Source of the DNA: Deltaproteobacteria bacterium | GTDB lineage: Bacteria > Bdellovibrionota_B > Oligoflexia > Oligoflexales > Bog-1112 | DNA length: 64,000 nt | Assembly: GCA_016186945.1 (NCBI GenBank) | Contig: JACPKR010000032.1 | Location: 10,198-74,197, forward strand | Direction of reading: 5' to 3' | In this document: positions 3,030-50,471 of the stretch, one piece after another | Layout of the letters: the number at the start of each line of letters is the position of its first letter | Position numbering within the stretch: position 1 is the stretch's first letter | The notes under the pieces: generated by a model | Told to the model about the DNA's origin: nothing | Seen by the model: only the letters and a program-made list of their open reading frames with translations | Databases searched by the model: none | Program-made: the position numbers and the translations under genes

Positions 3030-4994
3030 TCAGACAAGAAAATATTCTTTGATTTTCTTGACGACGGATTCCACCGTAAAACCGAATTCCCTTTCAAGAT
3101 CACCGGCAGGTGCTGAAGCTCCAAAGTGGTCGATGCCCACCATAAGTCCTTCTTTTCCGACAAAGCGTTCCCAGCCCAGTGTTGCTCCTGCTTCCAAAGA
3201 TACTCGTTTCCAAGATTCAAAGTGCAAAACCTTGCGTTGGTACTCAGCGCTTTGCTCGAAGAAAAGTTCCCAACAGGGGACTGACACGACTCGTACCTTG
3301 AATTCCGACGAAACCTGCTCTGCCACCCGCAAGGCAAGATCCACTTCGCTACCTGTCGCGAAAAGGATGAGGTCGCAATGATCGTCTTCACCCTTCACGA
3401 TATATGCACCTTTCGTAGCTTCTTCGATATTCCGTCGCTCTAAGGGCAGGTAGGGCACTTTCTGTCTTGTCAGGCAGATACAAGAGGGAGCTTGAAGTGA
3501 AAGTGCATGGCGGAACAGAATTTCCGTCTCGAACGGATCAGCAGGCCGCATGACATACAAGTCGGGAATCGCACGCAGGCTCATCAAATGTTCGATCGGC
3601 TGGTGCGTCGGACCATCTTCTCCCAGGTAAAACGAATCATGCGTGAATTCATGAATGACCCGCACCTTCTGAATGGCCCCGAGACGAATCGCAGGGCGTG
3701 CGTAGTCTGAAAACACAAGAAAGGTTGCCGCGAAGGGGATCAAACCATCATGAAGCGCAATCCCATTGCTGATGGCAGCCATCGGAAATTCACGGACACC
3801 GAAGACGAGGTTGCGTCCCATACGATTCTGTGCGCTAAAGTCTCCCACCTTCTCCTTAAACCACTCTGTCATATTGGACGGCTCTAAGTCTGCACTTCCT
3901 CCGATAAGTTTCGGAAGCACACCGCACCAGCTTTCAAGAAGCTTTCCAAACGCATTGCGCGTCGCCATAGGTTTTGCCATGTCCCACGCAACGGGAGGAA
4001 GTTTTGCGATATCTTCTTCCCCAAAGTAACGGTCCCAGCTTTCGGCAAAGGAGCGATCGCTGCGTTTCTGAGCTAAGTGACTTGTCCATTTCTTGACTTC
4101 GGAACGTCGGGTTGTGAAATTTCTTTGAAAATGACGCTTCGCCTCTTCTGGCCAATAGAACACCTGGTCTGCAGGAAGCCCCAACTTTTCTTTCGTCTTC
4201 TTTAATTCGTCCTTGGGCAAAGGCGCTCCATGCGTTTCATGCTGCCCTTCCATCGTCGCGACTCCATGAGCCATTGTGGTTCGACCGATTATGATTGTGG
4301 GCCTCTCCTGTTCAGATCGAGCAGCCTCGATCGCCTTACGTATTGCCGCATGATCGTGGCCGTCGATGGACAGGACGTTCCACCCAAAGCCTTCGAAAAC
4401 TTTTTCTTCCTTGTCGGATGTTGTGCGAGATATGGAACCGGAAATTTGCTGCGCATTACGATCGTAGTACCAGACAAGATGGGAAAGCCTCAGGTGCCCC
4501 GCTAACGACGCTGAGGCCAAAGTCGGCCCCTCCTGCATACAACCATCGCCCATGATCACCCATGTTTTATGGGAGAAGAATTCCTTACCGAGCACCGCAC
4601 GCAAATGAGTCCCGGCCAGGGCAAAGCCGACGGACATCGCACAGCCCTGACCTAGTGGACCTGTCGTGCATTCCACGCCCGGGGTGAGTACATTTTCCGG
4701 ATGGCCTGGTGTTTGGGAATGGAGCTGGCGAAAACGTTTCAGTTCCTCCATACGCAAGTGCCCCATAGCGTGAAGGAGGGCATATTGCAGCATAGACTCA
4801 TGCCCAGCACTGAGGATGAAACGATCTCGGCCCAACCATTTTACATTGTCGGGATCAAAGCGGAGGTATTCTGTGAATAAGATGTAGGCGAAATCTATGC
4901 TGGAGAGTGCGCCCCCAGGATGGCCTGACTGTGCTTTGTCTACGCCATCGAGGATAATGCCTTTGAGGATATTGATGGTTTCTTGGTCCTTCAT
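3030..4994 (-). CDS. tkt: Transketolase
   Basis: Full-length match to the transketolase architecture (KAQSGHPGGALS TPP motif, GDGCMQEG, HEFTHDS...GEDGPTHQPIEHL). Start at ATG 4994 is preferred: GGAG lies 5 nt upstream, and 22 residues precede SGHPG as in E. coli TktA. ATG 5024 is the alternative. Confidence 0.93.
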   Translation of the reverse strand: MKDQETINILKGIILDGVDKAQSGHPGGALSSIDFAYILFTEYLRFDPDNVKWLGRDRFILSAGHESMLQYALLHAMGHLRMEELKRFRQLHSQTPGHPENVLTPGVECTTGPLGQGCAMSVGFALAGTHLRAVLGKEFFSHKTWVIMGDGCMQEGPTLASASLAGHLRLSHLVWYYDRNAQQISGSISRTTSDKEEKVFEGFGWNVLSIDGHDHAAIRKAIEAARSEQERPTIIIGRTTMAHGVATMEGQHETHGAPLPKDELKKTKEKLGLPADQVFYWPEEAKRHFQRNFTTRRSEVKKWTSHLAQKRSDRSFAESWDRYFGEEDIAKLPPVAWDMAKPMATRNAFGKLLESWCGVLPKLIGGSADLEPSNMTEWFKEKVGDFSAQNRMGRNLVFGVREFPMAAISNGIALHDGLIPFAATFLVFSDYARPAIRLGAIQKVRVIHEFTHDSFYLGEDGPTHQPIEHLMSLRAIPDLYVMRPADPFETEILFRHALSLQAPSCICLTRQKVPYLPLERRNIEEATKGAYIVKGEDDHCDLILFATGSEVDLALRVAEQVSSEFKVRVVSVPCWELFFEQSAEYQRKVLHFESWKRVSLEAGATLGWERFVGKEGLMVGIDHFGASAPAGDLEREFGFTVESVVKKIKEYFLV

Positions 4995-23814: not shown

Positions 23815-23943
23815 GTTAGTGGCAAGGAGGTGGTTTGGAGGAAACTGCGCAGCTGGTTCCTCCAAGAAATCCCCTGGGGAGGCGACTCTTCCCTCGCGCC
23901 CCCAACAAACCCACCTCTCCCTTTTTGCCACAAACAGCTCACG
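23815..23943 (+). repeat. Degenerate MITE copy (sub-family with right end TTGCCACAAACAGCTCACG) in the divergent rfbB / glycosyltransferase intergenic region
   Basis: The core GGCAAGGAGGTGGTTTGGAGGAAACTGCGCAGCTGGTTCCTCCAAGAAATCC is conserved. Both ends have diverged. Confidence 0.75.
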
Positions 23944-23944
23944 T

Positions 23945-25924
23945 ATGACTACCCCAGAAATATTTCCGATGCAACCGCCACATCTTTATGCCATACTCAC
24001 ATATCGCCGTCATCGCTGGGATCTTCAAGGAGACATGGAAATTTATTCGGATCTCTTTCGTAATCAAACGATCAACGAACTTTTTCATAAAGTCCCTTGG
24101 TGTCTGACTGGCACTTTGCAGCAGCCTGCCATGCTCCAGCGCACGCTGCTTGGTGAAAACGCACGTTTTTCATCGATGGAGCGGTCTCTCACCTTCTCGA
24201 TCGTCACACCTACATGGAATACAAAAGTCATATTCATCCGCGACTTGATCGATTCTTGCCTCTTGCAAAGTTGGCCTTTTTGGGAGTTGGTCCTGATCGA
24301 CAATGGCAGTACAGAGACGGCGCATATTGAACATATCAAGCAACGTGCGTGCAAAGACTCACGGATAAGGCTGGTAGAGAATAAGGCAAATTTGGGAATC
24401 GGTGGCGGGCGCAACGCAGGCATTGCCCATTCGCGGGGCGACGTCGTGTGTTTCCTTGACCATGACGATGTGATTCATCCGCAGTCGCTTGGAATTTTTG
24501 CCCGTCAATTTCTGACGTGCGAAGAGACGAATTTCATCTATACAAACGAAGTCAAGTTGACTGAAGATGCGTCTGCGATTGCTGACTTTTTTTGTAAGCC
24601 AGATTTTAGCCTCGCAGGGTTACGTCGAACCAATTACCTCTGCCATTTCGTGGGCATCCGTCGTTCCTTTCTTGACAACGTTAAAACGCCCGATGGAATG
24701 TGGTTCAAGCCAGAATTTGATGGGTGCGAAGATCATGACCTTTTTCTTCGTTTAGCGGTCAGTCAAGGATTCAGTCCGGTGCATGTTCCCGTTTTTGCCT
24801 ATTTCTGGAGGATATGCCGGGGCAGTACCGCATCAGCTGTCAGTGAGAAGCCTTACGTTTATGATCGCGCGTTCAAAATGCTCAAACACCATCTGGAGCA
24901 GCTTGGACTCGATGCAACGCAGATTGAAACCAAGCCCACATCCGCTTACCCAAGGCAGTTGTACAGTCTTCGCTTTCAACCCCGGAAAAAGGAAAAGGTG
25001 TCCGTAGTGATTCCTTTCCGAGACCGCTCGGATCTGACTGAACGCTGCTTGCGTGGACTGGCGAAACAGTCTTACCGTGCCCAATGCGATATTATACTCA
25101 TCAACAACCGCTCGGAGCAGGCCGCTACTGCCTCAGCAATGAAAAGGTTGATGGAGACGTACGCTCCTTCTTTCTCAACACTTCGCGTCGAATCATTTGA
25201 CGGACCCTTCAACTATGGAAAAATCCATAATTGGGCGATGGCGAACTTTGTCTCCAATCCTTACATACTGCTTCTGAATAACGATGTTGAATTGATCGAC
25301 ACGGATGCTGTAGGTGCCATGCTCGGTGAACTGGAAGCCCACAGCACAATTGGCTTCGTGGGTATTCGGCTCATGTATCCATCGCCTCCGAAAGTTCAAC
25401 ACGGTGGCATCAAAATCAGGTTGGAACACAAGAATCTCGGTATATTTCACCCCACTCACGTCAAGGATGACAACGACGAACTTCCTTATGACGAACGCAC
25501 CGCGCCTGCGGTAAGCTTTGCATGTGTGATGACAAGGAGACAGGTTCTAAGCGAATTGGGAGAACTCGACGAACTCTCCTTTCCTAACGGATTTGGAGAT
25601 GTCGACATGTGTCTGCGAGCGCATCAGAAAGGTTTCGAGTGCTTTTATCTCGGCACCGTTGCCGGGTATCATTATGAATCAGCGACGCGCGAGTGTTGCG
25701 ATGAATCCTTGGAGCAAGTTTATCTTTCCGACGCTTACGCAGCAAGCTTGTCGAACCTGAGCGTGCGAACCTTCTCTCACGATCACAACAAGACGATTGA
25801 TGATGCATTAGGGGACGGACGATTTTACCTTCCCCTTCGCTACAGGGTGGCGGATAACGTCAATAGCATTGCTAAAAAATTACTGGGGCCCGTTCATAGA
25901 TTTGCAAAAATTTTGCTAACATGA
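23945..25924 (+). CDS. Bifunctional family-2 glycosyltransferase (two GT2 domains)
   Basis: ORF 23819..25924 trimmed: the first 42 codons are MITE read-through from a GTG. ATG 23945 gives MTTPEIF. GT-A modules are FSIVTPTWNTKVIFIRDLIDSCLLQSWPFWELVLIDNGS and VSVVIPFRDRSDLTERCLRGLAKQSYRAQCDIILINNRSE. Confidence 0.8.
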   Translation: MTTPEIFPMQPPHLYAILTYRRHRWDLQGDMEIYSDLFRNQTINELFHKVPWCLTGTLQQPAMLQRTLLGENARFSSMERSLTFSIVTPTWNTKVIFIRDLIDSCLLQSWPFWELVLIDNGSTETAHIEHIKQRACKDSRIRLVENKANLGIGGGRNAGIAHSRGDVVCFLDHDDVIHPQSLGIFARQFLTCEETNFIYTNEVKLTEDASAIADFFCKPDFSLAGLRRTNYLCHFVGIRRSFLDNVKTPDGMWFKPEFDGCEDHDLFLRLAVSQGFSPVHVPVFAYFWRICRGSTASAVSEKPYVYDRAFKMLKHHLEQLGLDATQIETKPTSAYPRQLYSLRFQPRKKEKVSVVIPFRDRSDLTERCLRGLAKQSYRAQCDIILINNRSEQAATASAMKRLMETYAPSFSTLRVESFDGPFNYGKIHNWAMANFVSNPYILLLNNDVELIDTDAVGAMLGELEAHSTIGFVGIRLMYPSPPKVQHGGIKIRLEHKNLGIFHPTHVKDDNDELPYDERTAPAVSFACVMTRRQVLSELGELDELSFPNGFGDVDMCLRAHQKGFECFYLGTVAGYHYESATRECCDESLEQVYLSDAYAASLSNLSVRTFSHDHNKTIDDALGDGRFYLPLRYRVADNVNSIAKKLLGPVHRFAKILLT

Positions 25925-28206
25925 TGTCCAAGTTCAATCGGTTTTTAAGTTTTGTGTTCCTTGCCAGTGCCTGCATACCGCCAGGAGTTATTTTCTATAC
26001 TCTTCGTCAGCCAGGCATTAACGAGAATGTTGAAAGGTTACCCTTAGACCATCCTCAGCAGCTCTATGCAGTGGGATTTGAACCTAAGCAGGATGGGAAA
26101 GCTGAGTACTACAGTTTAGCTCTTAAGTCGGATCACCCTTTCGATACGAGTAAGCTGGGCAAGATCTCCTTTCAAGTCGGCACCTTTCATTCAACTCCAA
26201 GAATTGAACATTCGCAGCTTGTGATGAACTCAGGTCTTTGTGTTTTCGAGGGACCAAGTAAAGATGACCTTGAAGATAACGCCTGGGTGAGCTTTGTGAA
26301 AAGCGAGGCGTGTGAGCAAACGGACTCTTCTCCCGCATCGCTTGAAATCCGGTTTTACACCAAACAGCCGACTTCGTTAGCCCTTTGGAGCGTTGTGGAC
26401 CCCTTGCCAGAAGTGCCCCGATGGCAGTTCGAGCACGTTGACACAAAGCAAGCAGTGTGGCCCATGTTAGCGTTGTCCTTTGCGACTGGACATGAGGAAA
26501 GATCGAAGTGGCAGCTTTTGAACGTCATGTGGGGGTTTCCTCATGGCTCCCCTATTCTGTCCTGGCTTGCTATTTTGTCGTTTTGTTTCTACCTGGTCTT
26601 CGTCAGTGGCTTTGGCTTTTTGGTGTGGACAGGCCGAAACCTTTTCCCTCTGCCGATCGCTGTTTCTGGCTTTTTCTTAAGTATAGGATTGCTTTATTGT
26701 TTCGTTTTTCCTCCCTTTCAGGCGCCCGACGAGCCTGATCACTTTCTGGGATTTCTAAGAGACCAGGGTATTTCTGATGCCGAGCCGCAATCGCTTGCCC
26801 TGGCTTCCAAGGGGCATTTTGCGAGGATCAGGCAAAATCCAGAGCAACGTTTTGCGGTAGGCGATGCGTTCACCCCAGGCCAAATGGAGTGGGGCAACAG
26901 AGATGTCACTGAGATTGCAGAAACTGCTATGCACGATCGAGCGCCAGTAACGCAGGCGTATTGGAGTCTATGGGGCTACGTGAGCAGCTCCTTCAAGGAC
27001 AATGTGAGCGTCCAGTTAATGAGCTTGCGACTCTTGAACATATTCCTGGTTACCCTCTCATTCTTTTTATTTCTATTTGCATCAGCAAAATATCTGGGAT
27101 CTTCGAATGTTTTGGCTCTTGTTTTTCTCAACTTCATGTCATCCTTGAGTGTTCCGTTTTTCGCGATGGGAGTTTCCAATTACCCTTCGATGATCGCGAC
27201 TTTTTTTCTTTGTCTGGCCTCGATTTTTTGTGAAGCTCGGAAGTCGCTAAGTAGAGTTCTCTTGTCTTTTGTTTTCGGGATTAACATAGCCTTACACTTG
27301 GGATGCGGTCGAACGGCAGTTTTTACGGTTCCTTTCCTGCTTGGCGCGTTTGTATGGGTGAGGGCGAAACAGATCCAGAAGCTTGTTCAACTCAACGAAC
27401 TGATTGTCCAGATTATCTTTCTGCTTGCTAGTGTCTATTCCACCCTCCATCTTGTAGGTTTCCCATCAGGTCCACTCTTCCATTCATTTTTGTCATCTTT
27501 CTTCCCTTCCTTGTTTCCGTCCGGCGCGGATCCCATCGGATGGTTTTCGTTCGCAGCAAGTGTTTTCTTGTTGCTCGTTGGCGCTTCATCGTACGGATTG
27601 AGACGGCTTGTATTCTCCGGCGGGCAGAGCTTTGCAAAGTATGCCTTGCTGGGTTTGGGAGCCTCCGTTTTCCTTTTGCCTTTTTTTTCGTTGAATTTTG
27701 CAATGCCAAACATTGAACTTGGTCGCTCGCTGACTATGTTTGAATATGCGTGGCGTGCTGTGATGGTATTTTTTCTTGGACCGTCACCGTGGGCGAGTGA
27801 CTTCTATGTGCTAAGGACATTCTGGGTTGGCTTCGGTTGGTTGGATGTTCCTGTTGCCGAACATGTATTTCGTCTGATGAAGTTTCTTCCTTTTGGGGGA
27901 CTGTTTGCGTTGGCCTTCTGTGGCAAGGATCGTGTGGAGGCTCTTAGCGGAGTTCTATTTTTTGCTTTTTTAATTGCTGTTGGACTCATGGTGCTTAGTC
28001 TAGCCAATCATTTTGTAGCGATCAACCTTCACGGACGCTATCTACTGACGACCTACCTAGCTGCGCTCAGTATACCCTTCTTTTTCAACTACACCCGGGC
28101 CAAACCCCGGGGAACTTTGATAATTTCCTCGACTGTTCAAGCTGTACTGATCTTGTATATGTTGAAGGTCACAGCTCTCGCTATTATAGAACGCTATCTG
28201 GGATAA
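25921..28206 (+). CDS. Large polytopic membrane protein of the O-antigen locus (761 aa; GT-C/DUF2142-like guess)
   Basis: ATGA start/stop overlap with the preceding glycosyltransferase. N-terminal soluble ~200 aa, then >=12 TM helices. Family assignment is tentative. Confidence 0.6.
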   Translation: MMSKFNRFLSFVFLASACIPPGVIFYTLRQPGINENVERLPLDHPQQLYAVGFEPKQDGKAEYYSLALKSDHPFDTSKLGKISFQVGTFHSTPRIEHSQLVMNSGLCVFEGPSKDDLEDNAWVSFVKSEACEQTDSSPASLEIRFYTKQPTSLALWSVVDPLPEVPRWQFEHVDTKQAVWPMLALSFATGHEERSKWQLLNVMWGFPHGSPILSWLAILSFCFYLVFVSGFGFLVWTGRNLFPLPIAVSGFFLSIGLLYCFVFPPFQAPDEPDHFLGFLRDQGISDAEPQSLALASKGHFARIRQNPEQRFAVGDAFTPGQMEWGNRDVTEIAETAMHDRAPVTQAYWSLWGYVSSSFKDNVSVQLMSLRLLNIFLVTLSFFLFLFASAKYLGSSNVLALVFLNFMSSLSVPFFAMGVSNYPSMIATFFLCLASIFCEARKSLSRVLLSFVFGINIALHLGCGRTAVFTVPFLLGAFVWVRAKQIQKLVQLNELIVQIIFLLASVYSTLHLVGFPSGPLFHSFLSSFFPSLFPSGADPIGWFSFAASVFLLLVGASSYGLRRLVFSGGQSFAKYALLGLGASVFLLPFFSLNFAMPNIELGRSLTMFEYAWRAVMVFFLGPSPWASDFYVLRTFWVGFGWLDVPVAEHVFRLMKFLPFGGLFALAFCGKDRVEALSGVLFFAFLIAVGLMVLSLANHFVAINLHGRYLLTTYLAALSIPFFFNYTRAKPRGTLIISSTVQAVLILYMLKVTALAIIERYLG

Positions 28207-28239: not shown

Positions 28240-29220
28240 TCATTTATTGGCACGAAGGTGAGGGCATTCCTGAACAACGCCAGCCTCAATGTTTGCCAAC
28301 ACTTGGTACGTATGCCGCGCAATGGTATCAAGCATGTTCTGGACGGAAAAAGAGGAGTCTAGCCCATACCGTTTGATGAGGTGCGCATCTGCTGCCATGT
28401 CGAATTCCTGGTCTTTCAAAATAGACTTAATGATCTCCTCTTGGAGAAGGCTAAAGGGTTGGCTGGAGATGAATAAAAGGGGTCTGTTCTTCAGCAGACT
28501 CGCATGTTTCTGAAGGAGGTCTCGAATTGTATCTTCCGTTCTCGCTCTTGCCTGCCCTGCTGGGGCGAGGGTATTGAGGATCAAAGGTTTCGGCCATTGA
28601 GGGGGAAGAGCGGCATGTTTGAAAAGGTAAGCCCAGGCTTCCGCTTCCGTTTTGGGAAGGCTCTCGTCTGCGTTCCGTTGTGTCGTCAGCAGCGGGGGCA
28701 GGAGAAAATTTGTCAGAGTTTCTTTTGATTCAAATTTCGGATCAAGAGGTCTATCGCTTCCGAGTGCAAGCAAAGCATCGAACGACAAGCCGGAATTATG
28801 AAGAGTAAGCAGATTTGCTAATCTGTCCGCATTGTTTGTAAAGGTTGAACCTAGAAGAACTACCGTCCCATACTTTCTGCTTGGCGGAACCACAGGATCG
28901 AGGTAACTTGAGTAGGTTTTTAGCAGCTCAGAAACTTTCTTATAATTTCGCCCGTCCTCTTTTATGTGAAGCCTTTCGCTTTTCCGCAGAAGGTGCGTTT
29001 GAAAGCAAGCATTTAATTCGCGAAGATTGTCTCCACATGAGATTTCCAAGTGTTCACGAAGCTCGTCAATTTCACTCCGAAACGCTTGGCAAGACGGACT
29101 GGACAGTATCTTCCCTATCTGTTCGCCAATTACACTTTTTCCTGCCGAAAAAGCTTTTGTGCCAGACAGAAACAGTACCGCAATAATTAGTTTATTCAGT
29201 GGTTTCAAAGACTTACCCAA
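28240..29220 (-). CDS. Secreted hypothetical protein (326 aa)
   Basis: Signal peptide MGKSLKPLNKLIIAVLFLSGTKAFSA. No confident family. Confidence 0.55.
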   Translation of the reverse strand: MGKSLKPLNKLIIAVLFLSGTKAFSAGKSVIGEQIGKILSSPSCQAFRSEIDELREHLEISCGDNLRELNACFQTHLLRKSERLHIKEDGRNYKKVSELLKTYSSYLDPVVPPSRKYGTVVLLGSTFTNNADRLANLLTLHNSGLSFDALLALGSDRPLDPKFESKETLTNFLLPPLLTTQRNADESLPKTEAEAWAYLFKHAALPPQWPKPLILNTLAPAGQARARTEDTIRDLLQKHASLLKNRPLLFISSQPFSLLQEEIIKSILKDQEFDMAADAHLIKRYGLDSSFSVQNMLDTIARHTYQVLANIEAGVVQECPHLRANK

Positions 29221-29382
29221 TGATGATAAAGGTGATGAAGCAAATGGGGAAATGAATAGCAGAAAAGGGAAAAGGAGGCCACTGCAATAGTCTTCTTGAA
29301 AAATAGATTTTTCTTGTTAGTTCCCCATCGATCAGATAAAGAGGTCAGAATCGAAAACCTACAGCTTGGAAAGGAGTCTAAA

Positions 29383-29406
29383 ATGGGCGACTCAATGGCA
29401 AATTAA
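29383..29406 (+). CDS. mccA: Microcin C-like heptapeptide precursor, MGDSMAN (7 codons + stop)
   Basis: ATG GGC GAC TCA ATG GCA AAT TAA, preceded by AAGGAG (29371-29376) with a 6-nt spacer. It ends in Asn as E. coli MccA (MRTGNAN) does. It lies 90 nt upstream of an MccB-like gene. It is too short to appear in the ORF track. Confidence 0.7.
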   Translation: MGDSMAN

Positions 29407-29496
29407 AAACAATGGCGGAACCATGGGTTTTTGGAGACCTTTAGCTCCGCCAACCTCTTATTACTAAAAAAAACCAATTTTAACGGCCTACACTAC

Positions 29497-30519
29497 ATGA
29501 AATTCAAGTTAGCACCTTATGTGCGAATAGGGTTCCAAAAAGAAGAACTTCATTTTGGATTCGGTTCGATTCAAAAAATTGTAAAAGAAAAAGAGCTGCA
29601 AGAAGCTTTGATCTCGTCTGCAAAATTCTTGAATTCTTATGAATCTTTGCAGAGTTTGGAATCCCATTTGAAGAATGAAGGATTCCAAGATGAGATTATT
29701 AAAAAGAACGTCCATATTATGGAAAAAAACAGGCTACTGATTTCTGAAAATATTTGGCAAAAAAATGATCGCCATAGTCGAACAAAGCTATTTCTTAATA
29801 TGTATACAGACCAAGTTGATAAAACTCTAAAAGCGATACAATTTAGACATATTGGTATTGTTGGGTGTGGAGGAATCGGTAATATTGTAAGCGTAAATTT
29901 GGCGACCATTGGGGTAACTAAATTCACACTCGTCGACGACGACTCTATTGAAGAAAGCAATCTTTCAAGACAATTTTTATTTAAAGAATCTGATTGTCAA
30001 AAATCAAAGGCCAAAACTCTTGCGAATGCATTAAAAGAAAGATCTCACAACGTAGACATAGATATTGTTGATTGTGCGATAACTGAAAAAAACGTAAATT
30101 TGCTATCTAATTGCGACTTTATTGTTCTTTCTGGTGACAGCAAAAATTTACCTTTTATCATTAACAAATTTGCAGTTGAGAGGAAGATACCCTTCATCAA
30201 TGTTGGATATATTCAAGATATCGCGGTATGGGGCCCTCTTGTGGTGCCAGGAGAAACAGGTTGCCTCGAATGTGGAAAGGGTAATTTTACTGAACAAAGT
30301 GATCTGCGAATTACAAAGATCAATGGTAACTATCAGGCTCCATCGATTGGTCCGGTTAACATGATTGCCGCCTCCCACGCGTCATTAGATATTATCAAAT
30401 TCATCGGAGGCTTTGGCGAAGTAAAAAGCTTAAATAAACGGGTTGGAATTTGGACTCATAACCTGACAATACAGGAACAGATTTTTTCTAAAAACAGTGA
30501 ATGCAGAGTATGCCATTAA
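29497..30519 (+). CDS. mccB: MccB-like ThiF/E1-family peptide adenylyl(nucleotidyl)transferase
   Basis: ATG 29497 (MKFKLAPYVRIG...; TTG 29431 in the track is probably over-extended). N-terminal ~125-aa non-E1 domain (a peptide-clamp/RRE-like position). IGIVGCGGIGNIVSVNLATIG, EESNLSRQFLF, PFINVGYIQDIAVWGPLVVPGETGCLEC and the C-terminal ECRVCH second Cys pair. By-eye collinear with E. coli MccB as I recall it (not a computed alignment). Confidence 0.85.
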   Translation: MKFKLAPYVRIGFQKEELHFGFGSIQKIVKEKELQEALISSAKFLNSYESLQSLESHLKNEGFQDEIIKKNVHIMEKNRLLISENIWQKNDRHSRTKLFLNMYTDQVDKTLKAIQFRHIGIVGCGGIGNIVSVNLATIGVTKFTLVDDDSIEESNLSRQFLFKESDCQKSKAKTLANALKERSHNVDIDIVDCAITEKNVNLLSNCDFIVLSGDSKNLPFIINKFAVERKIPFINVGYIQDIAVWGPLVVPGETGCLECGKGNFTEQSDLRITKINGNYQAPSIGPVNMIAASHASLDIIKFIGGFGEVKSLNKRVGIWTHNLTIQEQIFSKNSECRVCH

Positions 30520-31712
30520 ACTTAAAATTATTACTCATTGGCAATAGCTTGTTTGAAGGAGGCAGATTGTCCGTAGGGGCTATTAGTGTACTGTTTTTGC
30601 TTGATAAGGGTTTGAGCCTATCTGATTGCGCTTCGTTAAAGTTAGTTCAAGTTGCTACATTCCTAACCTGTGACATCCCCTTGGGACTATTTTTAAACAA
30701 GATAGGTCCATTAAAATCAATGAAATGGGCCTTAGTCCTAGCAATTACAGGGTGTTTAGGCTATCTGTTATCTCAATCGTTTCTGGGGTTTCTTATTGCC
30801 GAGTTTTTTACTGCCCTATCCATTTCTATTTGGCCTGCCGCATCATCTGCTTATGGCATGGACGCACTGGAAGGTGGAAGCTATTCCAAAAATACATTCT
30901 TTCACCAAGCCAGTTCAGCCGCCTCTCTTTCTACCTTTCTATTTGGTGTAGCTGGTGGTCTTATTTATATCGTTCAGATACAACTACCTTATTTTCTCAT
31001 TCTTATTGCGATGTCTGTCGGTCTCCTGATAACGCTTAAGTTAAAATCAGAGGTAAAATCCGATGTAAAATCAGTTGTTATAAGCCCCAGAAATTTTCAT
31101 ATTAAACATATAACGAAATATTTCAAATTATGGCCCGTTGTAAGCGTCTTGATTATCATTCAGTTTTTTTCACAAATGCAATTACATTACTGGCAACCTT
31201 TATTAAGAGATCTCAACTTGAATGGACCTCAATGGATATTTTCAGCAGCGTTTGGATGTATCACGCTTATAATGGCATTTTCATCTTACCTCTATTCCAG
31301 GGTCTGTGAAAAAGAAGCCATGAAGAATATGAGAACAAATCTATTTCTGTTGCTAATTTTGGGGATATCGGCGTCTTTGTTGTTTTACACGTATACGTAC
31401 GTCTCGGCTTTTTTACTTATAGGGCTTCTTTATTCAGTGTCGAAGATAGCAAGCACGTCAGTGTCCGTTCAGATCCAAGAAAGCATCGATTCAAATGAGA
31501 GATTGGCCGTTATTAAAACAGTATCTTGGGCAGCACGATTAGGAATGGTCCTCTCCCTCAGTATTATCTCTATTTTATTAGACAAGTTTTCAGTTAAAGA
31601 AATATTCGTCATATTTGGCCTAATAATGATCGTCTTTTCGATGATTTATTTGTTGACAATTAGCCTTGATGTTGGCATCAACCACAAAGAAAATGTAAGG
31701 ATCTTTAAATGA
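30501..31712 (+). CDS. mccC: MFS efflux transporter, MccC-like position
   Basis: 403 aa with ~12 TM. Its start overlaps the mccB-like 3' end (ATG 30501 or 30510). Same order and size as the MccC exporter. Confidence 0.75.
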   Translation: MQSMPLNLKLLLIGNSLFEGGRLSVGAISVLFLLDKGLSLSDCASLKLVQVATFLTCDIPLGLFLNKIGPLKSMKWALVLAITGCLGYLLSQSFLGFLIAEFFTALSISIWPAASSAYGMDALEGGSYSKNTFFHQASSAASLSTFLFGVAGGLIYIVQIQLPYFLILIAMSVGLLITLKLKSEVKSDVKSVVISPRNFHIKHITKYFKLWPVVSVLIIIQFFSQMQLHYWQPLLRDLNLNGPQWIFSAAFGCITLIMAFSSYLYSRVCEKEAMKNMRTNLFLLLILGISASLLFYTYTYVSAFLLIGLLYSVSKIASTSVSVQIQESIDSNERLAVIKTVSWAARLGMVLSLSIISILLDKFSVKEIFVIFGLIMIVFSMIYLLTISLDVGINHKENVRIFK

Positions 31713-32263
31713 AAGTTGTCATTTTATGTATATTGCAGTCTCTATTTTTAACTTCAATAGGTTTTGGATCTGAAATGTATATTGAACTCAGAAACTTCGA
31801 GGAACGCGACTTGCCGGATTTTTATGAATGGGCGTCTGATCCCGATGTGACCCAGTTTTTAATGTGGGATAATTATAAAAACAAAGAAAGCGCCAGGGAA
31901 TTTTTGGTTAGGGTAGCGATACCTCATCCATGGTTGAAGGCAATCGTTTGTGACGGAAAAGTGGTTGGTTCTATCTCCTTAGAACCAGGAAAAGGTTCTA
32001 AACAAAAAGTAGCTGAAGTCGGTTATGTTATTGCGAAGAAATATTGGAGTCGGGGTATTGGGACAGCTGCTCTCAAGGCAGCATTAAAAACTGGTTTTGA
32101 CGATTTAGATCTTGTCAGAATCGAAGCGTACGTGGATCCATGCAATCTGGCATCCATCAAAGTTATTGAAAAAAGTGGTATGACGCGGGAAGGATACCTT
32201 AGAAAGTGCATTCTGCAAAAAGGAGTTATAAAAGACAGATTGCTCTACGCTTTGACCCGTTAG
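31709..32263 (+). CDS. RimJ/RimL-type GNAT N-acetyltransferase (MccE C-terminal-domain-like self-immunity candidate)
   Basis: ATGA overlap with the MFS gene. GNAT core VVGSISLEPGKGSKQKVAEVGYVIAKKYWSRGIGTAALKAAL...RIEAYVDPCNLASIKVIEKSGMTREG. The true start may be MYIELRNFEE (31775). Confidence 0.8.
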   Translation: MKVVILCILQSLFLTSIGFGSEMYIELRNFEERDLPDFYEWASDPDVTQFLMWDNYKNKESAREFLVRVAIPHPWLKAIVCDGKVVGSISLEPGKGSKQKVAEVGYVIAKKYWSRGIGTAALKAALKTGFDDLDLVRIEAYVDPCNLASIKVIEKSGMTREGYLRKCILQKGVIKDRLLYALTR

Positions 32264-32289
32264 GGTTGGTGTCGCGAGTTCTGCTAAGA

Positions 32290-33615
32290 TTATCCAGTTT
32301 TTTGCAAGTTCTGAATGAGACCGAGAGTGGTACGGACTTCATGGTATGAGACGGTCTTTTCTTTGAAGTGAGCGAGAAGGATTTCCTGCTCTTCTTTGCC
32401 CACCTGAAGCTGTTCGAAGATGTTGCGAATATGAAGTTTCATGTGTCCTTTTTGAATTCCGGATGTGATGAGCGAATTGACTGCGGAAAAATTCTGCGAC
32501 AATCCCACTGACGCTACGATCGCCATCAATTCCTTGGCGGAAGGGTTCCGTAAAAGTTCCATAGATATCTGCACAAGTGGATGGTTGCGGGTTAGGCCGC
32601 CGATTGTTCCAAGAGCGAGTGGTATTTCAAGTTCGTAATGAAACTCACGATTTTCCACAAAAACCGTTGTTAATGCTTGGTAGCTCCCTTTCCTGCAGGC
32701 GTATGCATGGCCACAGGCTTCCACACTGCGGAAGTCATTCCCCGTTGCCAGGATGACGGCATCAATGCCGTTAAAGATACCTTTGTTATGAGTTACGGCA
32801 CGGTCTGGGGTGATATTGGCAATCTTGACAGCGAAATTAAATTTCTCGCAGTACTCGTGCTCAGTAAGGGTAGGGTCGAATCTGAGTTCTTCGATGGGAC
32901 AGCTGATTTTCGCTTTCACGAGACACTCGGGGGTATAGTTTGACAAAATCGCCATGACGATTTGGATATCGTGCCCCCCTTGGTCAAATTTGGGCCAAGT
33001 GCTTGCTTTTTCCTTAAATTTGAGCGCATAGGTTTCCAAGAGTGAGTTTATAAAATTGGCGCCCATTGCATCACACGTGTCGACCTCGAATCGAATTTGG
33101 TAGTAATGCTCGATCTTAGCCGATGTGTCGACCAGATGAATCCGACGGATACCTCCCCCTCGACGTTCCATCTTTTCTGTGAGGGGGCTCATCTCCCCAA
33201 CAATAGCATTTCTGCTTGTCTCAAAAAATTCAGACAACATTGCGAATGGTGCTGAGGACTTCAAATGCACGTGGCCTACTTTCAATGTGTTGACAATCTC
33301 AGCTTGGAAGCCCCCTCGCTCGGCCCATAGCTTCGCACCCTTTGAAGCTGCCGCGACGACGGAACTTTCCTCGGTGACCATCGGTACGTGATAAACCTGT
33401 CCGTTGATTAGAAAGTTAGGTGCAATACTGTACGGAAGATAAAAACTCGATAGAACATTCTCGCTTATACGATCAATCGACGATTGGATCGTGTCATCCT
33501 CATGTCTGAACTTCCGGAGACGCTCCTTGAGTTCATCCGAAAGGCTAGTGTCGCGTGACAGGGTTTCGACTTTTTCCTGCCAACTAAGCTTCGAAAAATT
33601 TCTAAGAATGTTCAT
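32290..33615 (-). CDS. mvaA: Class II (bacterial-type) HMG-CoA reductase
   Basis: 441 aa with TEESSVVAAASKGAKLW, DAMGANFINS, NKGIFNGIDAVILATGND, GTIGG. Pattern of class II HMGR. Confidence 0.85.
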   Translation of the reverse strand: MNILRNFSKLSWQEKVETLSRDTSLSDELKERLRKFRHEDDTIQSSIDRISENVLSSFYLPYSIAPNFLINGQVYHVPMVTEESSVVAAASKGAKLWAERGGFQAEIVNTLKVGHVHLKSSAPFAMLSEFFETSRNAIVGEMSPLTEKMERRGGGIRRIHLVDTSAKIEHYYQIRFEVDTCDAMGANFINSLLETYALKFKEKASTWPKFDQGGHDIQIVMAILSNYTPECLVKAKISCPIEELRFDPTLTEHEYCEKFNFAVKIANITPDRAVTHNKGIFNGIDAVILATGNDFRSVEACGHAYACRKGSYQALTTVFVENREFHYELEIPLALGTIGGLTRNHPLVQISMELLRNPSAKELMAIVASVGLSQNFSAVNSLITSGIQKGHMKLHIRNIFEQLQVGKEEQEILLAHFKEKTVSYHEVRTTLGLIQNLQKTG

Positions 33616-33788
33616 TTTTCAAAAAACTCATCCTTCCCGACATATTTATAACGTCGGTTGTCTCAAGAGAAAAATTTAATACTCCATATTTAACGTTTAA
33701 ATTCAATATGTTGTAAAAAACAACTCAACCCACATTGCCTTCCTCCGAACATGGCTCCGATCAACCAATTCACTAGCAGGAGTCAAAA

Positions 33789-34757
33789 ATGGCAGCACCC
33801 GCTTTGAAATTCCAAAAACTGCCGGAAGGTCTCATTGATTGGAAAGAACTCATCGACCGTTTTAACTTTGCCCGTTCGAAACTTTTCGGCCAGATAGGAA
33901 GAAGAAAGGACTATCTTTGGAACTGGGTATTCACAGCTGCCAAAACAACACAAATGAGATCCCCCAAAAAGTCTCTTGACCCTAGCCTGGACGAAATAGC
34001 AAACACGGCTAAAACTATCGGGGTTATGTGGGATGTCTTCATGGATGACATCGCGGACGAGTATCTTCCGACCGAACGAGCGGAGCTGATGCTTGATGTC
34101 GCTTTCAACAAGGCTAGCAATAAAAGACTGTCTGCAAACGAGCAGGCGTACCTGCGTGAATGTGAAAATTGCCATAAACTGGTCTTTGAGCTTGCACGAA
34201 AACTTCCCGGCTACAAAAGACACGCTTTGGCTCTCCGACGCGAATATATGCAGATTAGAAAGTGCTTTTCTTATTCGTTGGAGACAAGGCAGAATTTTCA
34301 GGCAATAGACTTTACCAAGTACGTTCAAATCATGTCAAACAATATGCATATGATTGCAAATGGTGTTATTGACTTGATGAAGCTCGACTATAAGGAAACG
34401 TTTTTCGACAATCCTCTGTTACGAAAAATGTTCGTCTTTGGACAAAGGATGGGCCGCATTGGAAATGCTACGACAACATATGAGTACGAAATAGAGAGGG
34501 GTGACTACACAAGTGAAATATTTGCCCTGGCCATAAGTCTGGGTCTATTGGATAGCGATTCTTTTGAAGATCCTAAGCGCGTTTTAGCCTCAGTTTATAA
34601 TGCTGATCTGGAAGCAGTTCTTTGGACTTTCTGGAAGGGCTACCGTTTTCAATTAATGGAACTGGCTCCGTCCCTCCCTTCCCTGGACATCAAGTCATAT
34701 GTCGCGGGGTTGGAAAAACTTCGCTTGCTTCATCTTGGAAGTCGAGGAAAAAAATAG
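33789..34757 (+). CDS. Class I terpene-synthase-like protein (DDxxD + NSE-type metal-binding motifs)
   Basis: 322 aa, all-helical in appearance. DDIAD at aa 86-90 and N226-x3-T230-x3-E234 (GNATTTYEYE) are 140 aa apart, the canonical spacing of the two Mg-binding motifs of class I terpene cyclases. Divergent from mvaA. Confidence 0.5.
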   Translation: MAAPALKFQKLPEGLIDWKELIDRFNFARSKLFGQIGRRKDYLWNWVFTAAKTTQMRSPKKSLDPSLDEIANTAKTIGVMWDVFMDDIADEYLPTERAELMLDVAFNKASNKRLSANEQAYLRECENCHKLVFELARKLPGYKRHALALRREYMQIRKCFSYSLETRQNFQAIDFTKYVQIMSNNMHMIANGVIDLMKLDYKETFFDNPLLRKMFVFGQRMGRIGNATTTYEYEIERGDYTSEIFALAISLGLLDSDSFEDPKRVLASVYNADLEAVLWTFWKGYRFQLMELAPSLPSLDIKSYVAGLEKLRLLHLGSRGKK

Positions 34758-36098: not shown

Positions 36099-36233
36099 TT
36101 CTTGGAGGAACCAGCTGCGCAGTTTCCTCCAAACCACCTCCTTGCTGGGGGGGCGCAGTTTCCTCCAAACCACCTCCTTGCTGGGGGCGCAGTTTCCTCC
36201 AAACCACCTCCTTGCCACGAGCGGCTTACTGAG
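36099..36233 (-). repeat. MITE-derived fragment with its half-core tandemly triplicated (~36-bp unit x3)
   Basis: CGCAGTTTCCTCCAAACCACCTCCTTGCTGGGGG repeated three times after TTCTTGGAGGAACCAGCTG. It ends in a degenerate TIR (CCACGAGCGGCTTACTGAGG). Confidence 0.8.
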
Positions 36234-50289: not shown

Positions 50290-50376
50290 GCTGGAGTGGC
50301 GGAATTGGTAGACGCGCTGGACTCAAAATCCAGTGGGGGCAACCCCGTGAGAGTTCGATTCTCTCCCCCAGCACCA
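50290..50376 (+). tRNA. tRNA-Leu (anticodon CAA)
   Basis: Hand-folded cloverleaf: acceptor GCTGGAG/CCCCAGC (A6:C67 mismatch), D-arm GCG-AATTGGTAGA-CGC, anticodon arm CTGGA-CTCAAAA-TCCAG, long variable arm GGGG-CAA-CCCC, T-arm GAGAG-TTCGATT-CTCTC, encoded CCA. Confidence 0.9.
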
Positions 50377-50383
50377 TGGGATT

Positions 50384-50471
50384 GCTCAGGTGGCGGAATT
50401 TGGTAGACGCGCTGGACTCAGAATCCAGTGGGGGTAACCCCGTGAGAGTTCAAGTCTCTCCCCGAGCACCA
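50384..50471 (+). tRNA. tRNA-Leu (anticodon CAG)
   Basis: Same architecture: acceptor GCTCAGG/CCCGAGC (A5:C68 mismatch), anticodon loop CTCAGAA, variable arm GGGG-TAA-CCCC, T-arm GAGAG-TTCAAGT-CTCTC, encoded CCA. Confidence 0.9.

Follow-up and report, generated by a model that had tools for sequence, protein, structure and literature searches.

The 64-kb stretch of DNA analysed here (the window) holds, at positions 29371-32263 on the plus strand, four genes in the order mccA - mccB - mccC - GNAT, which we are confident represent a microcin C-type operon in a horizontally acquired low-GC island of about 3 kb. The island (29221-32289) encloses the whole cassette; on its left it borders the start of a minus-strand gene (28240-29220), on its right the stop of an HMG-CoA reductase gene (32290-33615, minus strand). 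None of the four cassette ORFs is interrupted, their junctions overlap or are coupled, and the cassette, mini-ORF included, is identical in contigs of three sequencing runs, i.e. in three independent assemblies. The gene coordinates, overlaps and motifs listed in an earlier note on this DNA were all recovered from the sequence. The note had also judged the roughly 3-kb block A/T-rich by eye, and windowed computation bears this out, with a GC of 0.375 for the cluster compared to 0.486 +/- 0.019 in other 2.9-kb windows (z = -5.8); in addition, GC3 is 0.32-0.38 in the cluster genes versus 0.46-0.58 in neighbouring genes. In GenBank the proteins of the three larger genes carry generic names only, and the mini-ORF is not among the Logan gene calls. 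The microcin C reading is based on the anatomy of the locus, the fold and residue conservation of the MccB-like enzyme, the anomalous composition, and the fact that relatives repeat the heptapeptide ORF, the hairpin, the MFS gene and the GNAT gene. From these we infer expression, the chemistry of the product, the nucleotide choice, what the compound targets and what the GNAT does. Judged from its sequence, the four-gene cassette very probably converts MGDSMAN to a peptide-nucleotide "Trojan-horse" antibiotic of the microcin C type.

The mccA-like precursor gene (29383-29406, plus strand; ATG GGC GAC TCA ATG GCA AAT TAA) comprises seven codons and a stop, encodes MGDSMAN and is preceded at a distance of 6 nt by a Shine-Dalgarno sequence, AAGGAG (29371-29376, plus strand), read directly from the DNA. 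It is the sole 7-codon ATG...Asn-stop ORF in the window, counting both strands (128 kb). The uncalled, Asn-ended heptapeptide ORF that had been claimed is hence present, and exceeds what chance would provide: across 49 related loci (468 kb), 43 of the 44 Shine-Dalgarno-preceded 7-codon Asn-terminal ORFs adjoin an mccB homologue, and 18 related loci show a Shine-Dalgarno-like motif ahead of their heptapeptide ORF. The mini-ORFs of relatives retain exactly seven codons and the C-terminal Asn while their internal residues vary, in agreement with a published rule by which this MccB clade is recognised by its M...N heptapeptides (PMC6495379). Moreover, two close relatives (L004 and L005) encode the same heptapeptide with four synonymous and no non-synonymous changes between diverged flanks. 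This combination of constant length and terminus, variable interior and synonymous-only change fits an enzyme substrate rather than a chance or purely regulatory ORF. Every other precursor of the clade has Asn or Asp as its second residue, where MGDSMAN has Gly.

The 90-nt spacer between mccA and mccB contains a stem-loop (29413-29452, plus strand; -18 kcal/mol, z = -2.5 versus shuffles) that begins 7 nt after the mini-ORF stop and is a candidate attenuating terminator and transcript stabiliser. A consensus terminator scan did not call this hairpin, whose U-tract is weak; however, of 19 related loci examined for it, about 17 have a hairpin starting a few nucleotides past the mini-ORF stop, and the counterpart in Escherichia coli and Helicobacter pylori has been demonstrated to be a ribosome-controlled terminator (PMC4231749).

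The mccB-like gene (29497-30519, plus strand) starts 90 nt downstream of the mini-ORF, at an ATG that the N-termini of homologues favour over the TTG at 29431 used in GenBank. Its 340-residue product is composed of an N-terminal peptide clamp of about 108 residues and an E1/ThiF adenylation domain, as assigned by phmmer and Foldseek. Pfam ThiF matches residues 109-337 only, and the portion before it, the extra N-terminal domain described previously, has no Pfam match; the GCGGIGN (122-128) and NLSRQ (155-159) motifs and the two Cys pairs (C256-LE-C259 and C336-RV-C339) were likewise found as reported. Among PDB sequences, phmmer ranks MccB first (3e-51, residues 20-339), ahead of Uba1 (1e-13), MoeB (3e-11) and PaaA (8e-7), and the NCBIfam ThiF and MoeB models all score far under their cut-offs. 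The AF2 model (pLDDT 93.3) superposes on E. coli MccB with a TM of 0.88-0.91 over about 345 columns, clamp included, compared to 0.69 for PaaA and 0.62 for MoeB/ThiF. Sequence search and structure model thus both side with the proposed MccB with a clamp, and support assignment of the enzyme to the MccB group rather than to ThiF, MoeB or PaaA. Could the enzyme instead act on some other substrate, such as a longer peptide, a protein C-terminus in the manner of PaaA or ThiF/MoeB, or a TOMM-type precursor, with the 7-codon ORF being fortuitous or a purely regulatory uORF? Pfam and NCBIfam recognise ThiF-type domains only, some relatives are annotated as 'TOMM precursor leader peptide-binding protein', and mini-ORFs can serve as leader peptides. 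Nevertheless, MccB is by far the better full-length match in fold and sequence, sulfur-carrier, YcaO or cyclodehydratase genes were not found nearby, and the mini-ORF is constrained in relatives as described above, leaving such a substrate very improbable.

For residue-level comparison, the roles of MccB residues were taken from PMC6385645. The G-loop, S212, D214, the Zn-binding Cys4 set and the formyl-pocket residues G23, I239 and I242 are all kept. Two departures concern peptide binding. Gln occupies both peptide-contact positions that are Tyr14 and Glu26 in E. coli MccB, and the crossover loop, which lines the peptide pocket in the E. coli enzyme, is 6 residues shorter than there and has a 5-residue deletion absent from all 26 aligned relatives, the chlamydial-type enzymes among them. 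Because of the shortened loop and the two substitutions, activity on MGDSMAN is plausible but not assured. It is possible, though unlikely, that the cassette is genuine but silent or crippled in its host and yields no antibiotic, either since the shortened loop spoils peptide binding or for want of a working promoter. Beyond the deletion and the paired Gln residues, this would be in line with the failure to find a convincing sigma-70 promoter upstream of mccA or a clear Shine-Dalgarno sequence upstream of mccB, with a composition not ameliorated to the host, which suggests recent arrival, and with the in-frame stop in mccB of Parachlamydiaceae HS-T3, which indicates that such cassettes do decay. 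Against this, the four ORFs with their coupled junctions and all catalytic and Zn-binding residues are preserved, the sequence is the same in all three runs, and the model is confident throughout, with an ordered crossover-loop region (pLDDT of about 77-87). An in-frame deletion in a specificity loop is equally well explained by co-adaptation to the unusual Gly2 peptide.

The mccC-like gene (30510-31712, plus strand) overlaps the end of mccB and encodes a 400-residue MFS exporter (Pfam MFS_1, E = 4.7e-12); an alternative ATG at 30501 would yield 403 residues. It aligns in register with E. coli MccC (22% identity over 227 residues, E = 2e-8), and about 10 related loci (L004-L009, L012, L029, L041 and L049) have an MFS homologue as the gene directly 3' of mccB. 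The last gene (31709-32263, plus strand), joined to the MFS stop through an ATGA overlap, encodes a RimJ/RimL-type GNAT (Pfam Acetyltransf_3, E = 4.7e-28) and is a putative self-immunity gene. Both junctions are as previously claimed, as is the MFS identity, with about 11-12 hydrophobic segments where 12 transmembrane helices had been counted. The true GNAT start is possibly Met23 (31775), as residues 1-22 are non-conserved and of low confidence in the AF2 model (pLDDT 86), for which 3fbu is the top fold match, followed by SpeG, RimJ and RimL. The earlier note had likened this protein to the MccE C-terminal domain, which holds in part: it is RimL-type, linked to mccB, and its S149 aligns with the catalytic Ser553 of MccE. 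It is not an MccE orthologue, the kinship being weak (29% over 85 residues); MccE is missing from its top sequence and fold matches, and many unrelated RimJ, RimL or SpeG-type GNATs are equally near. As the protein is a generic RimJ/RimL-type GNAT, we infer an immunity role from conserved linkage, GNAT homologues of 44-51% identity being located 3' of mccB-MFS in 7 related loci. That RimL-type GNATs detoxify processed McC is known from experiments (Kazakov 2014 and Novikova 2010, as cited in PMC4363471).

The window encodes neither MccD nor an MccE N-domain nor MccF, as had been noted, and the lack of the first two is the reason why no aminopropyl group is expected. The MccB-like protein ends one residue past the second CxxC and has no C-terminal methyltransferase domain, and an MccS gene is absent too. 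All known cytidylating MccBs have such a domain and co-occur with MccS (PMC8323819). Whether the nucleotide is AMP or CMP had been considered impossible to tell from the sequence; we find it partly decidable, with AMP favoured over CMP since methyltransferase domain and MccS are both missing. Together with the absence of MccD, the MccE N-domain and MccF, this leads us to predict an undecorated peptidyl-adenylate. The choice of nucleotide follows an association rule and not known specificity determinants. There is a modest chance, higher than that of a silent cassette, that the product is no plain adenylate, i.e. that it carries CMP, GMP or UMP, or that the GNAT acetylates the product as a tailoring enzyme rather than conferring immunity. 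MccBs are NTP-promiscuous in vitro, the E. coli enzyme taking all four NTPs (PMC8323819); among plasmid-borne sequences, tblastn matches best to the MccB homologue of Yersinia pseudotuberculosis (33.6% identity), the product of which is a cytidylate; and the GNAT is not an MccE orthologue and may be extended at its N-terminus by about 22 hydrophobic-type residues. However, E. coli MccB is an equal or better match to this enzyme, the two components present in every known cytidylating system are lacking, and the reported detoxification by RimL-type GNATs and the conserved equivalent of the catalytic Ser speak for immunity.

For the favoured peptidyl-adenylate, we propose the following mechanism. 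The 7-codon gene would give rise to formyl-MGDSMAN, with the hairpin probably terminating or stabilising an mccA transcript that is short and abundant, which would supply more peptide than enzyme. The formyl-peptide would be held by the N-terminal clamp of the MccB-like dimer, which, at the cost of two NTPs, would turn the C-terminal Asn via a succinimide intermediate into an N-P-linked isoasparaginyl-nucleotide. AMP is the most likely nucleotide, and the product would lack further decoration, with predicted monoisotopic masses of 1081.30 Da formylated and 1053.30 Da desformyl. Export would take place via the MFS pump. In target cells, peptide transporters would import the compound and peptidases remove the peptide, leaving a non-hydrolysable mimic of aspartyl-adenylate as an inhibitor of aspartyl-tRNA synthetase. 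The GNAT most likely shields the producer through acetylation of the alpha-amino group of processed compound accumulating inside the cell.

The cassette is a new instance of the known microcin C system rather than a system of a new type, and Zukher 2019 Table S1 already lists many such clusters, chlamydial relatives included. The plasmid-borne E. coli mccABCDEF cluster for microcin C7 (read from NZ_CP081012.1 as L053) likewise features a Shine-Dalgarno sequence and a 7-codon Asn-ended precursor, a hairpin-containing spacer before mccB (74-90 nt in the two loci), an MFS exporter directly 3' of and overlapping mccB, and a RimL-type GNAT inside the operon. Its MccB shares 36% identity with our enzyme at a TM of about 0.9, with clamp, E1 domain, Zn Cys4 and formyl pocket kept. 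In contrast, the present cluster is chromosomal in a non-enterobacterial host, its GNAT is free-standing, its peptide is MGDSMAN instead of MRTGNAN, and MccD, the MccE N-domain and MccF have no counterparts. The minimal mccABC clusters validated in vitro from H. pylori, Streptococcus thermophilus, Lactobacillus johnsonii and Bartonella washoensis (Bantysh 2014, PMC4010828) share heptapeptide, MccB, pump and the predicted undecorated peptidyl-adenylate; the intergenic terminator is conserved in H. pylori (PMC4231749), the MccB of which is about 30% identical to ours. The locus described here differs in adding a GNAT and in its peptide, where Gly2, followed by Asp3, takes the place of a basic second residue. 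For the B. washoensis compound, processing in E. coli was slower owing to an acidic residue close to the N-terminus. The cytidylate clusters of Bacillus amyloliquefaciens and Y. pseudotuberculosis also combine an MccB-family enzyme with an Asn-ended precursor, and the latter has a GNAT-type immunity gene; however, their MccBs depend on MccS and end in a carboxymethyltransferase domain (PMC8323819), neither of which is found in this locus.

Previously, horizontal acquisition had been suggested by A/T-richness. This is now backed by the GC and GC3 anomaly, by a phylogenetic mismatch and by flanking genes, none of which was found in any related mcc locus, and on these sequence grounds transfer of the roughly 3-kb island is supported. 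The host, a 'Deltaproteobacteria' MAG according to its GenBank entry, probably belongs with Oligoflexia-like bacteria; its ThrRS is nearest to Oligoflexales, whereas the MccB-like enzyme is nearest to chlamydial homologues, which form its sister group in a neighbour-joining tree without bootstrap. Chlamydiales SCGC AG-110-P3 (MDTVTTN) and Parachlamydiaceae HS-T3 are among the predicted mcc-like clusters (Zukher 2019 Table S1). The match in gene order put forward earlier extends to relatives, as Asn-ended heptapeptides, the mccA-mccB hairpin and mccB-linked MFS and GNAT genes recur in related loci. The chlamydial-type loci (L004-L009, L012 and L049), which contain the nearest MccBs (45-50% identity), share the order mccA-hairpin-mccB-MFS-GNAT and a low GC, with 31-33% identity for the MFS and 46-51% for the GNAT. 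They differ from the present locus in their chlamydial hosts, in peptides with an M-N/D start (MNTISKN, MNTITTN and so on), and in matched mccB, MFS and GNAT regions lying about 70-100 nt apart, where the genes overlap here.

Based on the gene content of the locus at 29371-32263 and on comparisons to related loci, we propose that it is very probably a genuine microcin C-like (mcc-like) biosynthetic cluster, as an earlier note had put forward from the sequence alone. Every defining feature of such clusters that is testable here is present: an MccB-type enzyme with a peptide clamp and the catalytic residues, an Asn-terminal heptapeptide, a hairpin in the spacer between the two genes, and a pump. 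From 2014 onwards, mcc-like clusters have been predicted across many phyla, and several have been validated in vitro (PMC4010828).

The precursor is encoded on the plus strand by a 7-codon ORF missed by gene callers (29383-29406; ATG GGC GAC TCA ATG GCA AAT TAA), which translates to MGDSMAN and is preceded by a Shine-Dalgarno sequence, AAGGAG (29371-29376), with a 6-nt spacer to the ATG. All of these coordinates, first read in the earlier note, were reproduced on re-reading the sequence. With its N-terminal Met, its C-terminal Asn and its position adjoining the mccB-like gene, MGDSMAN has the make-up of the short precursor of such clusters, in which the terminal Asn is obligatory and a length of 7 codons is typical. 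No other ATG ORF of 7 codons with Asn before the stop is found on either strand of the whole 64-kb window, and the cassette sequence is identical across contigs assembled independently from three sequencing runs. The string MGDSMAN was found neither in the literature searched nor in Table S1 of Zukher 2019.

Further support comes from 49 loci in which a relative of the E1-like protein is encoded, taken as one genome per species and scanned on both strands (468 kb). They hold 44 Shine-Dalgarno-preceded 7-codon ORFs with a terminal Asn codon, 43 of which adjoin the E1-like gene; most of the loci devoid of a heptapeptide ORF are truncated by a contig end. In 18 of these loci, all non-actinobacterial, the ORF precedes the mccB homologue by 48-250 nt on the same strand, with peptides such as MNTISKN, MNTITTN, MNTITKN, MNIITMN, MDDEASN, MNTDTSN, MNCELRN and MNDQSWN, and further MDITSGN, MNTVPGN, MNTTPRN, MNSTARN, MNTTLGN, MDDLIRN, MNFIVRN and MNGFSSN. 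MGDSMAN is alone in the clade in having Gly, rather than Asn or Asp, at position 2. L004 and L005, both chlamydial, encode an identical MNTISKN: four synonymous substitutions separate the two ORFs and non-synonymous ones are absent, whereas identity in the flanking 40 nt is only 20-42%; selection therefore acts on the sequence of this peptide.

A different arrangement is found in the actinobacterial branch of this MccB clade (Nocardiopsis, Thermobifida, Murinocardiopsis and Salinactinospora), where the heptapeptide gene, often with a GTG start and encoding MNDDGNN, MNGDGSN and others, is found on the opposite strand some 600 nt past mccB (loci L015, L017, L019-L027, L030, L031, L033-L035, L037-L040, L043, L045-L047, L050 and L051). 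This convergent downstream placement represents an operon logic unlike that of an upstream, co-directional mccA with a terminator, and the peptides are in agreement with those published for Nocardiopsis, Thermobifida and related genera (Zukher 2019, Table S1). The same table lists two chlamydial MccB homologues of the clade studied here, one with a predicted MDTVTTN and that of Parachlamydiaceae bacterium HS-T3 with no precursor predicted. In the HS-T3 locus (L005, BBPT01000001.1) we note a Shine-Dalgarno-preceded MNTISKN ORF at 4918-4941, 60 nt upstream of mccB, and an in-frame stop within mccB at about 5637 (…ILISGD*ENV…); this mccB may be a pseudogene, or the stop may be a sequencing error.

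The 90-nt spacer that separates the mini-ORF from the mccB-like gene harbours a plus-strand stem-loop (29413-29452) starting 7 nt after the mini-ORF stop, with a folding energy of -18 kcal/mol (z = -2.5 versus shuffles), and a similar hairpin is found a few nucleotides past the mini-ORF in about 17 of 19 related loci. Its placement agrees with that of the intrinsic terminator in the mccA-mccB spacers of E. coli (74 nt) and H. pylori (84 nt), where a ribosome bound to mccA triggers termination and confers stability on a short mccA RNA of high abundance (PMC4231749). The U-tract after the stem-loop is weak and the hairpin received no call in a consensus terminator scan. The long spacer and its terminator-like hairpin are shared with known systems, and a terminator function is predicted. 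No convincing sigma-70-type promoter was detected in 29221-29382; the nearest plus-strand match, GTGCCA-17-AATAAT, lies at 29159-29187, and the count of such sites is below shuffle expectation.

The mccB-like gene (ATG 29497-30519, plus strand) encodes a 340-aa E1-like protein, in which the motifs listed in the earlier note were located at residues 122-128 (GCGGIGN), 155-159 (NLSRQ), 256-259 (CLEC) and 336-339 (CRVC). GenBank (MBI2602732.1) instead starts the protein at TTG 29431 (362 aa), inside the mccA-mccB hairpin; the N-termini of 26 aligned homologues support the ATG at 29497 as the probable start. Pfam recognizes a ThiF domain on residues 109-337 only, compatible with the extra N-terminal domain that had been noticed, as about 108 residues remain free of any Pfam match. 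A ThiF/MoeB-type sulfur-carrier adenylyltransferase, to which this domain would also fit, is rejected on several grounds. The protein falls far short of the curated cut-offs of every NCBIfam model for ThiF or MoeB (e.g. 92.7 versus 275 bits), and no gene for a ThiS or MoaD partner is found near the cassette. A phmmer search of the full PDB places three E. coli MccB sequences first (E ~3e-51, query residues 8/20-339), with Uba1 (1e-13), MoeB (3e-11) and PaaA (8e-7) following at much weaker values, so that the protein groups with MccB. In addition, AlphaFold2, supplied with 27 homologues, yields a model of high confidence throughout, including the N-terminal domain (pLDDT 93.3, pTM 0.89). Foldseek aligns this model with E. 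coli MccB at a TM score of 0.88-0.91 across about 345 columns; PaaA scores 0.69, and MoeB/ThiF (about 0.62) cover only the C-terminal ~250 residues, the adenylation domain. This full-length match, which extends across the clamp, shows an N-terminal peptide-clamp (RRE-like) domain to be present, and the modelled protein has the architecture of an MccB-type enzyme, combining a peptide clamp with an E1/ThiF adenylation domain.

When aligned globally with the E. coli MccB of an annotated plasmid, the protein shows 36% identity, and the alignment pairs the G-loop, S212, D214 and the zinc-binding cysteines C256, C259, C336 and C339 with their E. coli counterparts, all of these being invariant or nearly so in 27 homologues (residue roles according to Dong 2019, PMC6385645). 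Residues of the formyl pocket are also kept, namely Gly23, Ile239 (Val240 in E. coli) and Ile242 (Ile243 in E. coli). The differences concentrate at sites of peptide recognition: the peptide contacts Tyr14 and Glu26 of the E. coli enzyme are both replaced by Gln, and the crossover loop (E. coli 262-271) is short of 5 residues that are present in 26 of 26 aligned relatives. The altered contacts and the shortened loop are compatible with a different peptide specificity, and the loop deletion and the Gly2 peptide, two minor peculiarities of this cluster, may be linked by co-adaptation; equally, the deletion may weaken the enzyme. No simple rule of co-variation between MccB residue 26 and peptide position 2 emerged from the aligned N-termini.

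Overlapping the 3' end of the mccB-like gene, as had been seen, is a mccC-like MFS gene (ATG 30501 or 30510 to 31712, plus strand), whose product has about 11-12 hydrophobic segments, close to the 12 transmembrane helices initially counted. It matches Pfam MFS_1 (E = 4.7e-12) and is distantly homologous to the E. coli exporter MccC (in register over 227 aa with 22% identity, E = 2e-8). The operon hence includes a pump gene, with a predicted role in export.

The start of the fourth gene (31709-32263, plus strand) overlaps the MFS stop as ATGA, and its product is, as proposed, a RimL-type GNAT (Pfam Acetyltransf_3, RimJ/RimL-type, E = 4.7e-28). The structural model (pLDDT 86) is closest to an uncharacterised GNAT of B. 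anthracis (3fbu), followed by SpeG, RimJ and RimL (Foldseek TM 0.74 for RimL 1s7n and 0.70-0.72 for RimJ). Ser149, invariant in seven homologues, aligns with the catalytic Ser553 of MccE (Ser141 of RimL), and the invariant aromatics W41, W53 and W75 are candidates for the adenine sandwich formed by Trp453 and Phe466 in MccE. The protein therefore has a fold of the RimJ/RimL subfamily and an equivalent of the catalytic serine. Its likening to the MccE C-terminal domain holds to that extent, but it is not closer to MccE than other GNATs are: neither a phmmer search of the PDB (E <= 1e-3) nor the 50 best Foldseek matches include MccE, and the pairwise alignment is confined to 29% identity over 85 aa, with the N-terminal half not aligning. 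We thus reject an assignment as MccE orthologue. RimL-type GNATs are described as acetylating processed McC in work cited in PMC4363471, and homologues with 44-51% identity are encoded downstream of mccB-MFS in seven loci (L004-L008, L041 and L049, mostly from Chlamydiae and relatives); because of this activity and this linkage, we lean towards the GNAT as putative immunity determinant. Residues 1-22 (31709-31774), the hydrophobic MKVVILCILQSLFLTSIGFGSE, are not conserved in the homologues and have a pLDDT below 50. They may constitute a membrane-anchor or signal-like extension, or else translation may in fact begin at Met23 (31775); the Shine-Dalgarno sequence at 31709 is the better of the two. 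A 172-aa homologue with 43% identity (P0246) is recorded from a 118-Mb sequence of Cichorium intybus (chicory); it may be a plant member of the subfamily, or the chicory assembly may contain bacterial contamination or a transferred gene.

Besides these two genes and the mccA- and mccB-like genes, the cluster holds nothing else. Homologues of MccD, the MccE N-terminal domain and MccF, reported missing in the earlier note, were also not detected anywhere in the window: tblastn with E. coli MccD, MccE and MccF (E <= 1) gave no hit, in contrast to MccC, which matched. An aminopropylated compound of the E. coli type is not expected, as MccD, a SAM-dependent transferase, and the N-terminal decarboxylase domain of MccE are absent from the window. 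The choice between AMP and CMP, which had been regarded as undecidable from the sequence, can be narrowed. A carboxymethyltransferase domain at the C-terminus is common to all MccBs known to cytidylate in vivo, as is a cluster gene for MccS, a cxSAM synthase (2021 review, PMC8323819). Here, the MccB-like protein ends one residue after C339 and MccS is lacking, setting it apart from this cytidylating subclass and making an undecorated peptidyl-adenylate the better prediction. By this rule, which is one of association rather than mechanism, AMP is the probable nucleotide. The AMP product would have monoisotopic masses of 1081.30 Da (formyl) and 1053.30 Da (desformyl), computed with arithmetic that reproduces the published 1,119 and 1,091 Da of the E. 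coli product. By analogy, the compound is predicted to carry an N-P-linked nucleotide and to inhibit aspartyl-tRNA synthetase after processing.

The cluster appears to be of foreign origin. The A/T-richness perceived by eye is borne out by windowed GC, which is 0.375 in the 2.9-kb cluster versus 0.486 +/- 0.019 in other windows of the same size (z = -5.8), and GC3 is 0.32-0.38 in the three larger cluster genes versus 0.46-0.58 in neighbours. MccB is closest to homologues from Chlamydiae MAGs and from Parachlamydiaceae HS-T3 (45-50% identity) and branches beside the chlamydial clade in a neighbour-joining tree computed without bootstrap support. These affinities could indicate a chlamydial host, which we reject, since the threonyl-tRNA synthetase encoded in the window, although 70% identical to metagenomic proteins, has Oligoflexales/Oligoflexus as its nearest named relatives (60-64%), and since the E1, MFS and GNAT proteins of the cluster occur exactly in GenBank under a 'Deltaproteobacteria bacterium' MAG. 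In conjunction with the observation that the flanking genes of the window occur in none of the related mcc loci, the GC anomaly and the chlamydial-like MccB in an Oligoflexia-like host thus support horizontal acquisition of a mobile four-gene cassette, as suggested earlier. An empty site was sought by a metagenome scan with the neighbouring HMG-CoA reductase, which returned 80 loci, all with <=54% identity and none with the upstream gene or other flanking genes of the window, and thus yielded no such site. No Oligoflexia or 'Deltaproteobacteria' host of an mcc cluster was found in the literature searched or in Table S1 of Zukher 2019.

A more far-reaching scenario, which we consider unlikely, is that the cassette reflects the exchange of a microcin C-type weapon between environmental Chlamydiae and an Oligoflexia-like bacterium, perhaps in a shared protist or host-associated niche, and that enzyme and substrate have diverged together, arriving at a new mode of recognition. 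In such a mode, the crossover loop shortened by 5 residues would act together with Gln14 and Gln26 on the only Gly2 precursor of the clade. If true, the pair could widen the substrate rules of MccB and give a compound with another spectrum of uptake and processing.

With this locus, the microcin C family gains a new scaffold, MGDSMAN, and a precursor gene, now correctly delimited, that had not been called before; the three larger genes of the locus bear the generic GenBank names "ThiF family", "MFS" and "GNAT". The range of the family now includes an Oligoflexia-like lineage. Among environmental Chlamydiae and in other phyla the four-gene cassette is likewise in circulation, in every case with an Asn-ending heptapeptide. 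The understanding of microcin C-type systems as such is unchanged by this cluster. As MccB enzymes are under development as ATP-driven tools for modification of protein C-termini (PMC11118369, PMC13255007), a natural variant whose specificity loop is shortened and whose cognate peptide differs could serve as a helpful point of comparison for engineering.

The surroundings of the cassette are marked by an interspersed repeat of about 100 nt, with a core, GCGCAGTTTCCTCCAAACCACCTCCTTGC, with conserved flanks and, internally, with the inverted repeat GGAGGAAC...GTTTCCTCC. The core is present in 17 copies in the 64-kb window versus 0 expected by chance, mostly at gene ends (2072, 2932, 5074, 7126, 14545, 21740, 23850, 36117/36153/36187 as a tandem of three, 43287, 46499, 50947, 54993, 56434, 59708 and 61248). 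The repeat matches no Rfam family and looks like a REP- or MITE-like element of the lineage. It evidently breaks short-read assemblies, because the Logan contig L001 (12,277 bp) spans exactly the interval between two copies. A perfect 47-nt inverted repeat at 23822-23868 and 36099-36145 was considered as a border of the low-GC island and rejected, as its core recurs 17 times across the window as part of a genome-wide interspersed element. Two direct-repeat pairs, D2 and D3 (two copies each, 22-23 nt, 86-87% identical, in coding regions), were taken as chance.

Directly beside the cassette, the interval 32290-34757 holds a minus-strand gene for a class II (degradative-type, NAD-dependent) HMG-CoA reductase and a gene for a 322-aa protein with a weak match to a terpene synthase C-terminal domain (E = 1.2e-3); the two may form an isoprenoid-related pair, which is placed outside the island because its GC content is normal. 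On the other side, two proteins devoid of Pfam and NCBIfam matches are encoded: one of 326 aa (28240-29220, minus strand), whose N-terminus resembles a signal peptide, and a polytopic membrane protein of 761 aa (25921-28206, plus strand). The latter follows two regions rich in GT2 glycosyltransferases and may be part of a cell-envelope glycan locus. An Rfam scan of the window returned nothing inside the cluster and two tRNA-Leu genes only, arranged in tandem at 50290-50471, 8 nt apart, with anticodons CAA and CAG.
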